Shown: positions 51,504-56,163 of the stretch, one piece after another
Numbering within the stretch: the first letter of the stretch is position 1
Layout: each line of letters opens with the position of its first letter
Assembly: GCA_037440465.1 (NCBI GenBank)
Contig: JBBIUB010000007.1
Location: 1 to 64,000, forward strand
Reading direction: 5' to 3'
DNA from: Coprothermobacterota bacterium
GTDB lineage: Bacteria; Coprothermobacterota; HKB111
DNA: 64,000 nt
Notes under the pieces: generated by a model
Databases searched by the model: none
What the model was told of the DNA's origin: nothing
What the model saw: only the letters and a program-made list of their open reading frames with translations
Made by a program: the position numbers and the translations under genes

Positions 51504-52701
51504 CTCTATTACTCTCGATATAGAAAAAGCTCTTTACTCTGAATTTAAGAGTATTGAAGAAATTCGTTCTCTTAATGTTAAAAAAGTTCATGAAAGTATT
51601 ATTAAATCTGATGTATCTGACATAGACCTGGCTCCATCTGCTGGTTATGGTTATGGTGATTGGGGAAGAGAAAAGATAGAGGAAGTATTCGCCAGGGTAT
51701 TTGGTGGAGAAGATAGTCTTGTTAGGCCACAAATATCTACAGGTACTCAAGCTCTTTATCTATCTTTAATGGGGACTCTGATACCGAGCAAAAGAAAGAA
51801 GCAAAAAGATGTTCTTATTCTTACAGGCGAGCCGTACCCCACAATTCTACCTACCTTCAACTTTTTAAAAGATTCAGGTGTTAATGTTAATAAAGCAGAT
51901 ATTAGCACTACTCCTTTGGAGGAAATCCTCTCAAAATATGAATCACTTGATCTAATCTTTATTCAAAGATCTAAGGGTTACAGCCTTAAGAATTCTTTGA
52001 GTATTTCCATGATTGAAGAAATAATCAGGCTGATACGTATATATTATAGTAGTAATGTAATTATTTTAGTTGATAATTGCTATTCAGAATTTGTAGCAGT
52101 TAAAGAACCAGGTCAGATCGGAGCAGATATAATTGTTGGTTCACTTATGAAAAATCCAGGTGGTGGCATAGTTTCAACAGGTGGGTATATAGTCGGCAAG
52201 AAAGACTTGGTGCAGGATATAGCAAGTTTTTTATACGGTGCTGGGGTAGGGAAGGGGTTAGGTCCAATTCACAATAAGAAAGAGATTCTTCTTGGCTTAT
52301 ATCTGGCTCCATTAGTAGTCAGTGAATCACTAAAAGGAGTGTTATTCGGTAGCCATCTTTTCCATAAACTAAGTATGAAAGTTATACCAAAGCCAGGTGA
52401 AGAGTTAGCTGACATAGTCCTGGCAGTTGAGTTGGGGTCTAAAGAAAAAGTATTGAAGGCATTAAAGGAGGTTCAATCTATGGGACCCTTGAATCCAAGT
52501 GCATTACCAGAAGGGTCACTTCTTCCAGGATACTCTGATGAAGTTGCTATGGCTGGTGGAACTTTCACTCCAGGCTCTTCAATAGAATTAAGCGCTGATG
52601 CTTTATTAACTTCTCCTTGGGTTTTATATTTGCAAGGTAGCTTCTATTATGAATTATTCAGGGAAACCTGTTTAAAGATAGCCCAAACCATATTATTTTA
52701 G
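51475..52701 (+). CDS. YnbB / aluminium-resistance family PLP-dependent protein (methionine gamma-lyase-like)
   Basis: GYGYGDWGRE, QRSKGY, VDNCY, GSLMKNPGGG, MAGGTF..GSSIELSAD. Confidence 0.88.
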   Translation: MKSFSHINLNSITLDIEKALYSEFKSIEEIRSLNVKKVHESIIKSDVSDIDLAPSAGYGYGDWGREKIEEVFARVFGGEDSLVRPQISTGTQALYLSLMGTLIPSKRKKQKDVLILTGEPYPTILPTFNFLKDSGVNVNKADISTTPLEEILSKYESLDLIFIQRSKGYSLKNSLSISMIEEIIRLIRIYYSSNVIILVDNCYSEFVAVKEPGQIGADIIVGSLMKNPGGGIVSTGGYIVGKKDLVQDIASFLYGAGVGKGLGPIHNKKEILLGLYLAPLVVSESLKGVLFGSHLFHKLSMKVIPKPGEELADIVLAVELGSKEKVLKALKEVQSMGPLNPSALPEGSLLPGYSDEVAMAGGTFTPGSSIELSADALLTSPWVLYLQGSFYYELFRETCLKIAQTILF

Positions 52702-52707
52702 ATTTCT

Positions 52708-53535
52708 TTAAAGTTCCGCTGCTAAGGGGAAATAACTCTCTACCAGAACTTCTCTTAAATTCTTATCTATATAAAATCCTTTATATCCTAATGCTTGTCT
52801 AACTAAATCAGGTTGACAACCAATATTAATTAGATGATTTAAATATAAGGAACGTAACCTTTGAGGAGTACATATTATCCCTGTTTTTTCCTTTATTAAG
52901 TGGACTTCTCTGGTTATATGCGACTTCTTTATGTTAAACATTCTTTTTTCATTAACTCTCTTAATTACTAAATTAAGCAGTTCCTTTGCTGTTATTTCAT
53001 CTATAACAGGTGCTAACCTTTCCTTACCATCAAGTGATATTACCCTCATAAACACATGATTCTTTATAATTACAATATCAGTTGGTGAAAGTTTAAAAAT
53101 CTCATTTATTTTTAATCCTGCATATAACATTAATAAAAAAGTAAGTTTTAAATCTGCAGGGAGGAAATATATATGTGTTAGAATAATCTCTATTTCTTTA
53201 TTTATAGAAGTATTCTCTGGTTTTTCATTCTTTACTTTGATCTTTTTTATGTTTACAGGATTTCCTTGTACTTGACCAGTATCGGTTAGATAATCATAAA
53301 AACCCTTTAGTACTGTTATACATAAGTTTATAGTAGTTGGTTTTAATCCTAATCCAGAAAGGTAAGGGGTATATCTTTTGCAATCTTCTCCACTTACATT
53401 TTTAAACCATAATTTTTCTTTTTTACACCAATTAATAAAATATTCTAAAGCAAACTCATAAGTCGAAATAGTTTTCTTAGACCTGTTTGCTTTTATAAGT
53501 TCTCCTAAATAATTTTTTATGTATCTTCTAAGCAT
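52708..53535 (-). CDS. XerC/D-like tyrosine recombinase with a degenerate catalytic site
   Basis: Core-binding N-domain (SKKTISTY, LKPTTIN..TVLKGFYDYL..GNP); GLKINE, KER, TPQRLRSL and ALGY align with Xer boxes but catalytic positions are substituted. Confidence 0.8.
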   Translation of the reverse strand: MLRRYIKNYLGELIKANRSKKTISTYEFALEYFINWCKKEKLWFKNVSGEDCKRYTPYLSGLGLKPTTINLCITVLKGFYDYLTDTGQVQGNPVNIKKIKVKNEKPENTSINKEIEIILTHIYFLPADLKLTFLLMLYAGLKINEIFKLSPTDIVIIKNHVFMRVISLDGKERLAPVIDEITAKELLNLVIKRVNEKRMFNIKKSHITREVHLIKEKTGIICTPQRLRSLYLNHLINIGCQPDLVRQALGYKGFYIDKNLREVLVESYFPLAAEL

Positions 53536-53630
53536 TATTCATTTTTTTTAACTAATAAATAATTAGTATAAATAATAGTTGATTATAACACAGGCAGACT
53601 TATTTATCCAAATTCACACTGAAAATTATC

Positions 53631-53658
53631 ACTTCTGATAATATATCTTATGTTAAAT
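53631..53658 (+). other. dif chromosome-dimer resolution site
   Basis: ACTTCTGATAA-TATATC-TTATGTTAAAT, 11+6+11 layout. Right arm equals the E. coli XerD arm; left arm resembles the B. subtilis arm ACTTCCTAGAA. Intergenic, and gene orientation flips around it. Confidence 0.85.
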
Positions 53659-53764
53659 TGATATTTTGAAATTGTCCAAAATCATCATATATTAAGCTCA
53701 AGGAAATTTAAAATATGTTTTTCAATGTGTTTTATGAATTTCAAATTAAATCTTTTACTAATAA

Positions 53765-53861
53765 CTCATTACTTATTACATATTAAATTTTTTAAATCTG
53801 AACTTGTTTCAGCATATCATCTTAAATCCTTTTCAAATCACTCATTACACATTACATATTA
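53765..53861. repeat. Two short tandem heptamer arrays (consensus CWYATTA)
   Basis: CTCATTA CTTATTA CATATTA (53765-53785); CAAATCA CTCATTA CACATTA CATATTA (53834-53861). Confidence 0.6.
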
Positions 53862-54170
53862 CGACTTTTTAACTTCCAAACACCCCAAAACCCCCTCTAT
53901 TTACCACCTAATTAAACATATTCTGCATGTGTTATGCATTTCCTACTTGACTCACAAAACTACCAAATAAAGCATTCTATGGGGTATTTCAGTTACATAG
54001 CCATTCCCAGAAGATATAATCATTGGATCTTTCCATCCTTCCTCCCAGCCAATTTAAAATTCCTTTACCAACGTTATGTAAGAGGGCGCACCAGCGATAT
54101 ATAATGAATCAGAAACCTACTTTGCGGGATTGAAGACTAAGGGGTTAGTGTTACCACACCCCAAAATTGC

Positions 54171-54251
54171 AGATAACGGTTGAGGATAAAAGAAGTTTGG
54201 CAAATCCGAATTTGGACGAAGCGAAGTGGAGTCTTTTACAACATGTTAGAT
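54171..54251 (-). other. Integron attC-like site closing the methyltransferase cassette
   Basis: Minus strand: ATCTAAC (RYYYAAC), TAAAAGA ... TCTTTTA inverted boxes, GTTATCT. 81 bp, beginning 34 bp after the stop codon. Confidence 0.65.
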
Positions 54252-54285
54252 AAAGTGCCACATCTTTATGCATTATCTGTTCAAT

Positions 54286-54951
54286 CTATCTTTCTGCTAA
54301 AGCAATTTGAAAAAAATCCCAGCTTGTCACACCAGTTCTAATTATCCTAAATCCTGCTCTTTTGATTTCATTTGCCAGTCCGCATTTCAGCAGATCTTTA
54401 TAGGTCGTGTATTCAGGGTTAAAACGCTCCATAAAATCAAACAACAATGCCTTCCATCTTCGGTCTGGTTTATTATGTTCAACGAGGACTATCTTGCCTC
54501 CCAGTCTGATGACCCTATAAGCTTCCGATAAAACATTCTGTCGCACTTCTTGAGGCATCTCATGGAGTGCACCACAAATGACACTCTTATCAAAATAGCT
54601 ATCAGAAAAGGGAATATCTTGAGCATCACCCTCTATGAGAGAGAGCCCATCAGGTTCTCTCTTTTTCCGGGCAATCCTTAATTGAGCAGGAGAAAGTTCA
54701 ATACCCACCACCTCTCCTGTCCCTGCAAGTCTTTTAGCAAGCATTATGGTTAAAGTGCCCGTGCCACAGCAAATGTCCAGTATCTTTTCGCCAGGTTGAG
54801 GGTTGATCCATTCGATTATTAACTCCCGCCATCTCCGTTCACCACCAAAACCTCCGTTAAGAAAGAAGAAGAGTACTTTCATAAAGGGATCGTAAATGTG
54901 AGCAAACCAACTATACCATTTTTCATAGGCACTACGATAATAATCTGGCAT
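54286..54951 (-). CDS. Class I SAM-dependent methyltransferase (UbiE-like), cassette-borne
   Basis: ILDICCGTG, GDAQDIPF, ALHEMP, RVIRLGG. ATG 54951 preferred because the track's longer start runs through the attI-like site. Confidence 0.85.
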   Translation of the reverse strand: MPDYYRSAYEKWYSWFAHIYDPFMKVLFFFLNGGFGGERRWRELIIEWINPQPGEKILDICCGTGTLTIMLAKRLAGTGEVVGIELSPAQLRIARKKREPDGLSLIEGDAQDIPFSDSYFDKSVICGALHEMPQEVRQNVLSEAYRVIRLGGKIVLVEHNKPDRRWKALLFDFMERFNPEYTTYKDLLKCGLANEIKRAGFRIIRTGVTSWDFFQIALAER

Positions 54952-54992
54952 TTCTATCCTATTTTTAACTTTTTTTACATGGTAATGTAGCA

Positions 54993-55070
54993 TTTCGCCT
55001 AACTCGTTCCTATTCGAACTGTTCGGATATCTTTTTAATTGAGTAATATAGACAAACTCGGTTCGCATAT
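54993..55070 (-). other. Second integron attI-like site
   Basis: Minus strand: ATATGCGAAC ... ATATCCGAAC-A-GTTCGAATAGGAACGA-GTTAGGC; shares 17 bp with the site at 646-662. Confidence 0.55.
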
Positions 55071-55229
55071 GCTTCCCCTTGCCTGAATGCCAATTCCTTT
55101 ATCATCAAATATCATCTCACAATTTATTATATACTCCTGATAAGAGCAAGGATTGTGGGGCAATTGCTCTTTTGAGATATGTATCCAAATGCTTTGACTT
55201 CTGCTTTCATATTCTGGAACTTACTTTTC

Positions 55230-55379
55230 CTAGTCTTCAGGATAATCAAAGCCATAACTGAGTTTATGGTCATAAACCTGAATATACCCTGCGGTTACTG
55301 GTGTTATTGGTGAGGAAACAAAAGTTTGTTCTAATAACTGTCTTTCTTTAAATAGCAAAACAAAGGAGGTAAGCACTAA
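55230..55379 (-). pseudogene. Possible startless gene fragment (membrane-anchored, PsbP-like motif)
   Basis: LVLTSFVLLF...YDHKLSYGFDYPED-stop; no start codon. Resemblance judged by eye only. Confidence 0.25.
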
Positions 55380-55380
55380 A

Positions 55381-56163
55381 TTAGAAGATAATAGATAAGC
55401 ATGTTAAACCACCATCACCCTTCCTAAATTCTGACATCGGGATTTCAATAGTGGTAAAACCTTCATCTTTGATGAATTTTTTAGTTATAGGATATCCTTC
55501 AGGAATAAGTACCTTTCCATTTATTGATAGACAGTTAGTACTATATTCGTATTTTTTGGGAACAATGATTTTTTTAAATTCAGAAAAATATTTGTCATCA
55601 AAATACCCAGGAGTTATTAGGATATAATCATTTCCTAAGTAAGTGCAGGCTGATTTTAAGTGAAATATCTCATTTATTTTTACTGGAATTACTTGGTAAC
55701 CATCATTTGAAACAATAGATTGTACTTGCTTAATTGCCTGTTCGTTAGTTCTCGGAGAAATGCCAATGAAAATTTTATCTTTGATTTTTAATACATCTCC
55801 CCCTTCTATTGTTGCCGGTGATTTAATCTCGAAGATTTCCTTATAGTTTGCAAGGATTTTCTTGACTTCTATTTCTTCACCAACTCGTGATTTAACTCCC
55901 ATGTATGAAATAATTGCTTTGTCTCCGATTATTATCGCTGTGTCTTCCACAAAGCAACAATCTGGGAGTTTATCATCAGTCTCTATTCTTATCAATGTGA
56001 GACCTAATTGTCTTAGGGTTTCGCAATATAGACTATGTTGTTCCTTTGCTAAATTAAAGTCTATCTCTTTTTTTGGTATACGAGTCTTAATGCACCTGTC
56101 ATAGGTATCCGGCACATCTCGTATTACCGCATAATTACCTTTAGGTGTGCTCGTCTTCTTCAT
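55381..56163 (-). CDS. Dimethylargininase (DDAH) / amidinotransferase superfamily
   Basis: PDCCFVEDTA, SRVGE, EGGDVL, RTN, HLKS, KGDGGLTCLS (catalytic Cys). Domain starts near ATG 56163; the track adds 63 aa upstream. Confidence 0.88.
   Translation of the reverse strand: MKKTSTPKGNYAVIRDVPDTYDRCIKTRIPKKEIDFNLAKEQHSLYCETLRQLGLTLIRIETDDKLPDCCFVEDTAIIIGDKAIISYMGVKSRVGEEIEVKKILANYKEIFEIKSPATIEGGDVLKIKDKIFIGISPRTNEQAIKQVQSIVSNDGYQVIPVKINEIFHLKSACTYLGNDYILITPGYFDDKYFSEFKKIIVPKKYEYSTNCLSINGKVLIPEGYPITKKFIKDEGFTTIEIPMSEFRKGDGGLTCLSIIF

Follow-up and report, generated by a model that had tools for sequence, protein, structure and literature searches.

A putative pseudo-recombinase gene retained beside the XerCD-type dif site of a Coprothermobacterota lineage

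What does a Xer-like protein do beside a dif site once its own active site has been lost? This question is raised by a 64,000-nucleotide (nt) stretch of DNA from a Coprothermobacterota bacterium (GenBank assembly GCA_037440465.1, contig JBBIUB010000007.1, positions 1 to 64,000 of the forward strand; "the window" below means this whole stretch), in which a gene for a 275-amino-acid (aa) protein resembling the Xer tyrosine recombinases adjoins a XerCD-type dif. An earlier reading of the DNA letters, here called the original prediction, had described an intact 275-aa Xer-like open reading frame (ORF) near dif and had taken it for a retained pseudo-recombinase linked to that site. The ORF is confirmed at 52708-53535 on the minus strand, with 95 nt from dif to its start codon, and the wider claim agrees with the catalytic loss, the purifying selection and the linkage to dif in four of four genomes with DNA context that are reported here. 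The further step of the original prediction, a role as structural partner, guard or regulator at dif, is a proposal that is weighed separately below. Judged from its sequence, this is a retained, lineage-restricted pseudo-recombinase beside dif, and it combines traits of dif-linked Xer modules, of non-catalytic Xer roles and of domesticated integrases. The two features at the centre of the locus are:

52708..53535, minus strand: pseudo-recombinase gene; 275 aa, ATG start, no internal stops
53631..53658, plus strand: dif, XerCD type; left (XerC-type) arm 53631-53641, centre 53642-53647, right (XerD-type) arm 53648-53658

Is the protein a tyrosine recombinase by fold? In Pfam, the N-terminal SAM-like core-binding domain (PF02899) is matched at 37.3 bits against a cut-off of 22.3, and the catalytic domain (PF00589) at 26.0 bits, slightly below its cut-off of 27.1 (27.6 bits in the genome frame). 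The core-binding domain occupies approximately residues 1-95 and the C-terminal recombinase-fold domain approximately residues 110-275. The AlphaFold2 model, built on a 114-row alignment, has a mean predicted local distance difference test score (pLDDT) of 93 and a predicted template modelling score of 0.79; helices within residues 2-85 reach pLDDT 95-98, and the sole weak stretch lies at approximately residues 251-264 (pLDDT ~60 over 251-260), the position of the Tyr helix, where no helix is predicted. Foldseek ranks XerA (5hxy/4a8e) and XerH (5jk0) as the best PDB matches, ahead of Tn1549 Int, lambda Int and Cre; each has a probability of 1.00. The modelled fold is thus that of a two-domain simple tyrosine recombinase. 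The protein is a member of none of the closest named families: in NCBIfam, the best score is to archaeal XerA (NF040815; 86.3 bits, cut-off 220), and the scores to XerD (TIGR02225; 70.5 bits) and XerC (TIGR02224; 54.0 bits) lie below the equivalog cut-offs of 329.6 and 335.15, respectively.

To this fold the active site has been lost in nearly all positions. We assigned the catalytic columns from HMMER alignments to XerA (4a8e) and XerD (1a0p) and from MAFFT alignments with 23 and with 107 other recombinases (the latter being alignment A5). The six columns hold K142 at RI (within AGLKINE), L168 at the beta-hairpin Lys (within ISLDGKER), Q225 at HII, R228 at RII, Y251 at HIII and L260 at the nucleophilic Tyr. 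In other words, where tyrosine-recombinase enzymes have R-K-H-R-H/W and a nucleophilic Tyr, this protein reads K, L, Q, R, Y, L; five of the six positions are replaced (R to K, K to L, H to Q, H to Y and Tyr to Leu), and the RII arginine alone is kept. The original prediction had called these five changes by eye, and the alignments bear it out in every detail. Among the 107 other proteins of A5, the same columns hold R in 99, K in 97, H in 95, R in 106, H in 99 and Y in 101, with all six intact in 92 proteins. The assignment of Leu to the Tyr column does not depend on gap placement, because no gap occurs between LGY/LGH and the C-terminus when the protein is aligned with its nearest active relatives. 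By these alignments, the 275-aa protein is without a recombinase active site, and the structure prediction and Xer alignment that had been proposed as a check give the same picture of a recombinase fold with its active-site columns lost.

Is this the state of one protein or of a family? We searched 5.8 billion proteins with a word index and 1.84 billion representatives with a profile, and we also made whole-genome searches and a scan of one genome per species. The word-indexed search returned only three close relatives (54, 40 and 40% identity). In the profile search, the family scores 418-476 bits, followed by a gap down to the next matches at 125-187 bits (P0011-P0029). The three remaining genomes of this taxonomic family, G001-G003 from a second genus, each have an orthologue of ~42% identity, and the other 37 genomes sampled gave only weak matches to canonical Xer proteins. 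In the species-level scan, the family appears in three records (Candidatus Lithacetigena glycinireducens, Candidatus Psychracetigena formicireducens and "Coprothermobacterota bacterium"), which are counted once with G001-G003 because the proteins are identical; two metagenome contigs repeat the Psychracetigena-type sequence. The family thus counted comprises seven distinct proteins, four of which have DNA context. A further 19 matches from the scan were set aside: the 11 that were read out are active-looking (nine "Bacilli" proteins of canonical XerD type with all motifs and two from Bathyarchaeia) and are not family members.

Across the family, four to six of the six catalytic positions in A5 are changed in every member. 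The residues are K/K/S/S/S/S/L at RI, L/K/S/F/S/S/S at the beta-hairpin Lys and L/V/S/S/A/T/S at the nucleophilic Tyr, and this variation within the family is the pattern expected of unconstrained positions. By contrast, RII is kept in six of seven members, and the Tyr that replaces HIII (Y251) is invariant in all seven. The expectation that relatives would share the same substitutions therefore holds for the catalytic loss itself and for the Tyr at HIII, but not for RI, the beta-hairpin Lys and the Tyr column, where the residues differ. In five members, all of the second genus type, there is a gap at the Tyr-bearing helix (6 columns in alignment A2, 10 in A1).

Could the protein still cut DNA with an unconventional active site? 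Under this explanation, Y251, Y255 or Y268 would serve as the nucleophile, and the invariance of Y251, the retention of R228 in six of seven members and the presence of Y255 in both the window protein and P0002 would fit it. However, the catalytic residues are gone from RI, the beta-hairpin Lys position and HII, and what replaces them varies; Y255 and Y268 are both missing in five of seven members. The original prediction had itself named a repositioned Tyr in GFY or ESY as the observation that would overturn it; the GFY segment falls in the gap in five of seven members and ESY reads EDL in the same five, so neither "rescue" tyrosine is a feature of the family. Moreover, the four comparison proteins with Tyr at HIII are all degenerate elsewhere. 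We consider a still-active recombinase barely credible.

The substitution of HIII by Tyr, invariant in the family, was seen in just these four of the 107 comparison rows, all with further degenerate positions. More generally, at least one catalytic column is changed in 15 of the 107 rows. Metagenomic Xer-like proteins with two to six of the six columns changed are P0043, P0056, P0063, P0080, P0089, P0104, P0111, P0135 and P0150; rows such as P0043, P0063, P0080, P0089, P0104, P0111 and P0135 fall in several clades, and residue losses thus recur independently in Xer-like proteins.

Has the gene, having lost its catalytic residues, simply been left to decay? Such a relic would have no function, and two observations would suit it: the constraint on the gene is weaker than that on its neighbour, and the family is tiny, with seven proteins from searches of 5.8 and 1.84 billion. 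Against it, all seven members are full-length and free of stops and frameshifts, even at 40-54% identity, and the structure is predicted at pLDDT 93. Furthermore, the ratio of non-synonymous to synonymous substitution rates (dN/dS) within the second genus is 0.22-0.23 at an unsaturated dS of 0.34-0.61 (Nei-Gojobori), below the value of 1 that the original prediction had named in its proposed check; the adjacent 408-aa gene gives 0.12-0.14 by the same method, and comparisons between genera are saturated at synonymous sites. A decaying relic was already disfavoured and is, in our judgement, extremely improbable. The DNA-binding character also persists. Comparison of the two genera shows conservation to be highest in the core-binding domain (48% identity) and lower in the C-terminal domain (38%), and the seven members have an isoelectric point (pI) of 9.5-9.9 and a net charge of +14 to +23 (the median pI of 105 comparison proteins is 9.61). 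The gene is, by these measures, maintained under somewhat relaxed purifying selection with the character of a DNA-binding protein. That the protein is both dead and selectively maintained is, in our assessment, very probable. Because the cutting residues are lost while the gene is kept by selection, the pseudo-recombinase probably binds DNA without cutting it.

Which site does the gene adjoin? The dif sequence is ACTTCTGATAA-TATATC-TTATGTTAAAT, i.e. 28 bp in an 11-6-11 arrangement. The pattern ATAA-N6-TTATGTTAAAT, with 0 or 1 mismatch in the right arm, has a single match in the 1,280,068-base genome (35 contigs, 94.5% complete). The site is intergenic and lies where genes switch from the plus to the minus strand and the GC skew changes sign, and the cumulative GC skew reaches its maximum at ~52-54 kb of the window. 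Since the skew follows the coding strand in the window and flips also near 9 kb, this peak is supportive only as a sign of the terminus. In a sister family of the same phylum, two genomes (G007 and G006) each contain ACTTCCGATAA-TGTGCA-TTATGTTACAT once, 693,750 bases from dnaA in G007 (genome of ~1.4 Mb) and 653,888 bases in G006 (~1.2 Mb; sizes rounded), i.e. roughly opposite the origin. The genes next to dif in the sister family are unrelated to those next to dif in the window, the sole match being a distal ORF (L145, 2234-3019) to a window gene ~6 kb from dif, and the nearest Xer-like matches to the 275-aa protein in G006 and G007 lie ~51-53 kb from dif. Because the same arms are present in the sister family without such a gene, the dif in the window is the ordinary XerCD-type site of the lineage and is older than its association with the gene. 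We classify the site as an XerCD-type dif that is 28 bp long (11-6-11), unique, intergenic, terminal and conserved in relatives.

How stable is the pairing of gene and site? Wherever DNA context is available (four of four genomes), the gene has an identically oriented dif upstream of it, at a distance of 95-121 nt (95 nt for the window and 118-121 nt for the three relatives), and the linkage that the original prediction had suggested looking for is thus kept. The dif of the three same-family genomes is identical to that of the window at 26-28 of 28 positions. When the spacers are aligned, dif together with ~10 nt on the gene side is the only conserved block in an otherwise diverged sequence. 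Synteny on the gene side is kept between the genera (the 408-aa gene, HflX and two more genes), and on the other side of dif nothing matches. The four linked loci descend from one ancestral arrangement, and the linkage therefore counts as a single evolutionary event. Only 6 nt separate the 3' end of the gene from the point where a conserved housekeeping gene ends.

Where did the protein come from? A maximum-likelihood tree (LG+G4, quick search) was computed for 114 proteins, and in it the seven members form one clade (98 in the Shimodaira-Hasegawa-like approximate likelihood ratio test, SH-aLRT) inside a 57-row clade (SH-aLRT 98) of small recombinases that includes the nearest active matches. 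XerC and XerD of the host fall in the other half of the 114-row tree, and the bipartition has an SH-aLRT of 98. Given this position among the small recombinases, the family is not a recent copy of the host XerC or XerD. The nearest matches outside the family, P0011-P0029 (125-187 bits), resemble its members in their length of ~275-290 aa, a GNP linker motif and a C-terminal tail of the "LPE..F.LAA" type; unlike the family, they retain the catalytic R, K, H-x-x-R, H and Y, and only P0015 has one changed column. The automatic ESM Atlas label for the cluster of the nearest active relative is tyrosine-type recombinase/integrase, with Bacillota as the commonest phylum. A scan of viral contigs and a tblastn search of plasmids with the nearest active relatives gave only generic matches of at most 33% identity.

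Based on these data, we suggest the following history. The ancestor would have been a small active recombinase from a branch other than XerC/XerD, and it would have arrived beside the XerCD dif before the two genera of the family split; the simplest route would be as the integrase of an element targeting dif. The active site has since been lost, in most members together with the Tyr-bearing segment, and purifying selection has preserved the two DNA-binding domains, the basic charge and the C-terminal tail. In this scenario, the gene would encode a domesticated, catalytically dead simple (Xer-like) tyrosine recombinase; joined with the action at dif proposed below, we hold the whole account at only a little short of an even bet. 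An element still integrated at dif, similar to integrative mobile elements exploiting Xer (IMEX), was considered and rejected: there is no second dif-like copy shared among the loci and there are no further element genes. Also, unlike IMEX-type elements, the arrangement at the window dif predates the split of the two genera.

What, then, might the protein do at its present position? We suggest that the pseudo-recombinase could recognise a specific DNA sequence in dif or directly next to it and bind there without cutting. Binding would most likely be on the side of the left arm, which is overlapped by a family-specific palindrome that also borders the putative promoter of the gene. Once bound, the protein could restrict or schedule how XerC/XerD, or elements that exploit dif, reach the site, and it would probably also act on its own transcription, perhaps as a repressor. 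Two further features enter this proposal:

53582..53610, minus strand: promoter-like site; TGGATA, 17-nt spacer, TG-extended TATAAT; 10/12 plus TG
53625..53642, strand not applicable: perfect 7-4-7 palindrome ATTATCA/TGATAAT, overlapping the left dif arm and running 6 nt past it toward the gene

The palindrome abuts the -35 region of the promoter-like site, which is the best of its kind here (53610-53582). The flank beyond the left arm is largely common to the window and the other genus (alignment A3) and is not found beside the same arms in the sister family. That the pseudo-recombinase acts at or next to dif is a tentative reading to which we give slightly less than an even chance.

The same findings can be read in another way. 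The protein could be a domesticated recombinase that serves as an ordinary sequence-specific DNA-binding protein, for example in transcription regulation or in the nucleoid, at targets that have nothing to do with dimer resolution, and its position at dif would then be a frozen accident of where the ancestral element landed. Several points count in favour of this explanation and against an action at dif. Descent from a non-XerC/D branch means that the DNA specificity need not be for dif. All dif-linked loci go back to one ancestor, and the linkage could, as far as the compared loci tell, be inherited synteny with no functional meaning; moreover, the linkage count covers four of the seven members, with P0002-P0004 outside it. 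The locus is not set within an array of dif half-sites: the density of arm matches (0 or 1 mismatch, counted per 100 kb) that the window contig shows falls inside the spread of the other contigs. Catalytic loss recurs in Xer-like proteins (the 15 of 107 rows above), which suggests that domestication is common and need not involve dif. The constraint on the gene is real but relaxed, with a dN/dS roughly double the value for the housekeeping gene next to it. The conserved flank and palindrome amount to ~10 AT-rich bases compared between two independent lineages, and the palindrome, picked after the data had been seen, has low statistical weight. Finally, the region is AT-rich and contains 13 promoter-like sites, compared with 10.2 +/- 3.8 in shuffled sequences, i.e. 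not above chance; the site at 53582-53610 is therefore a consensus match only. In this respect, the extended -10 that the original prediction had placed at 53582-53590 on the minus strand (TGTTATAAT) is present and falls within this promoter-like site, but sites of its kind are no more frequent in the region than expected.

Two observations argue against an ordinary DNA-binding factor parked at dif by accident. The gene and dif stayed joined while the other side of dif was rearranged, and the only conserved block in the spacer consists of dif and its gene-side flank. We regard this as the main alternative, though a rather unlikely one. In the most far-reaching form of an action at dif, the pseudo-recombinase would be a dedicated third, non-catalytic component of the XerCD-dif system that masks the left arm, in a lineage seemingly without SMC-ScpAB. 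In this "guarded dif", occupancy of the left arm would set the timing or order of XerC/XerD action or shield dif from Xer-exploiting elements, and it would be a previously undescribed module. We consider this full version doubtful.

Which other Xer genes do the genomes contain? The genome of the window (G000) encodes two canonical recombinases with all motifs, one on contig C28 (302 aa) and one on contig C22 (290 aa), as well as an FtsK bearing the gamma domain. G001-G003 also have two canonical Xer genes each, so that the inventory of other Xer genes called for by the original prediction gives two canonical ones per genome. In G000, where a contig of 14,202 bases ends (C21:14002-14151, minus strand), a 78-aa frame corresponds to the last third of a catalytic domain (48.6 bits) and looks like a fourth recombinase gene severed by the contig end. 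In the same assembly, contigs C34 (3900 bases, 62% G+C) and C35 (4316 bases, 69%) differ from the 31-42% elsewhere and are probably foreign to the bin.

With the queries used, no SMC above the family cut-off was found in any of the four genomes (G000-G003), ScpB was likewise found in none of these four, and ScpA was not found in the window genome. The best SMC-like ORF of the window genome (G000 C16:24615-26897, 761 aa) is SbcC/Rad50-like with a CPLC hook. The four genomes are 83-95% complete and the absence of SMC, ScpA and ScpB is thus not proven; the lineage may lack an SMC-ScpAB-type condensin. These results bear on a third explanation, in which the protein would organise the terminus. XerD of B. 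subtilis is described as unloading SMC-ScpAB at dif-like XDS sites, with recombination not being needed (PMC11840125, citing Karaboja et al. 2021). This non-recombination role of XerD at terminus sites, together with the location of the gene at the terminus, would speak for a similar function here, and the window protein would be alike in being a Xer-fold protein that acts as a DNA-bound terminus factor. However, the B. subtilis XerD is a normal active protein with SMC-ScpAB as its partner, while here a separate dead paralogue is found in genomes in which SMC and ScpB (four of four) and ScpA (window genome) were not detected. Given these negatives, the SbcC/Rad50 type of the SMC-like ORF and the lack of a half-site array or cluster, unloading of SMC is unlikely, and we rate a terminus organiser of the B. 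subtilis type as very improbable.

How does the locus compare with known arrangements of Xer genes and their sites? Few site-specific recombination systems are understood as well as that of Xer and dif, and its known accessory control comes from FtsK and, on plasmids and phages, from unrelated proteins. Streptococci also have XerD-like, a short Xer-like protein that is said to take no part in difSL recombination and is not known to be linked to dif, which would make it a precedent for a Xer paralogue kept without recombining; the window protein is not a XerD-like protein, as it scores 17.8 bits against the NF002685 cut-off of 178. The modules xerS/difSL of streptococci and lactococci and xerH/difH of Campylobacter and Helicobacter have the Xer gene immediately beside its own site (PMC5357621, PMC2731167). 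The locus in the window is similar in that the gene adjoins the chromosomal dimer-resolution site, at 95 nt here and at 118-121 nt in the relatives. However, XerS and XerH are active, are the sole Xer proteins of their hosts and act on atypical sites, whereas here the active site is lost and two canonical Xer proteins are present. Also in contrast to those modules, the window dif is a classical 11-6-11 site that is common to relatives without the gene. An abstract-level literature search, with subscription journals mostly outside its coverage, turned up no earlier account of a classical XerCD dif with a catalytically dead Xer-fold gene linked to it.

If the proposed role is true, a dead Xer-fold protein tied to a classical dif would be a natural case of a recombinase turned into a site-bound regulator, and the locus would give a simple system in which to relate occupancy of one dif arm to dimer resolution and to the entry of dif-exploiting elements. 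If the linkage is only historical, the locus would still document the domestication of an integrase parked at dif. In either case, the pseudo-recombinase is a further lineage-specific feature of an uncultured group that is poorly known and has small genomes.

The surroundings of dif hold a few further observations. Rfam gave no match at E <= 0.1 on 52000-55500. Past dif, ~630 AT-rich bases (53659-54285) are without an ORF of at least 100 aa or an Rfam match; the corresponding gap in the other genus is only ~127 bases, and the acetyltransferase-like gene next to it has no trace in the window. Inside the pseudo-recombinase gene, at 52923-52939 on the plus strand, the 17-mer ACTTCTTTATGTTAAAC equals dif minus its middle 11 bases with 1 mismatch, so that the first 6 bases of the left arm are joined directly to the right arm. 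This 17-mer has the orientation of dif, at a distance of 708 bases from it, and the orthologues in the other genus lack it; besides dif, it is the sole such match in the genome (spacers of 0-14). By a rough estimate, ~1 match of this type is expected genome-wide by chance, and only its position is odd. In one relative only (locus L027, 2289-2299; the same place in L158), an inverted right-arm-like sequence, TTATGATAAAT, with 1 mismatch and a poor left arm lies ~1.55 kb past dif as seen from the gene, with an EndoIII-like ORF between it and dif.

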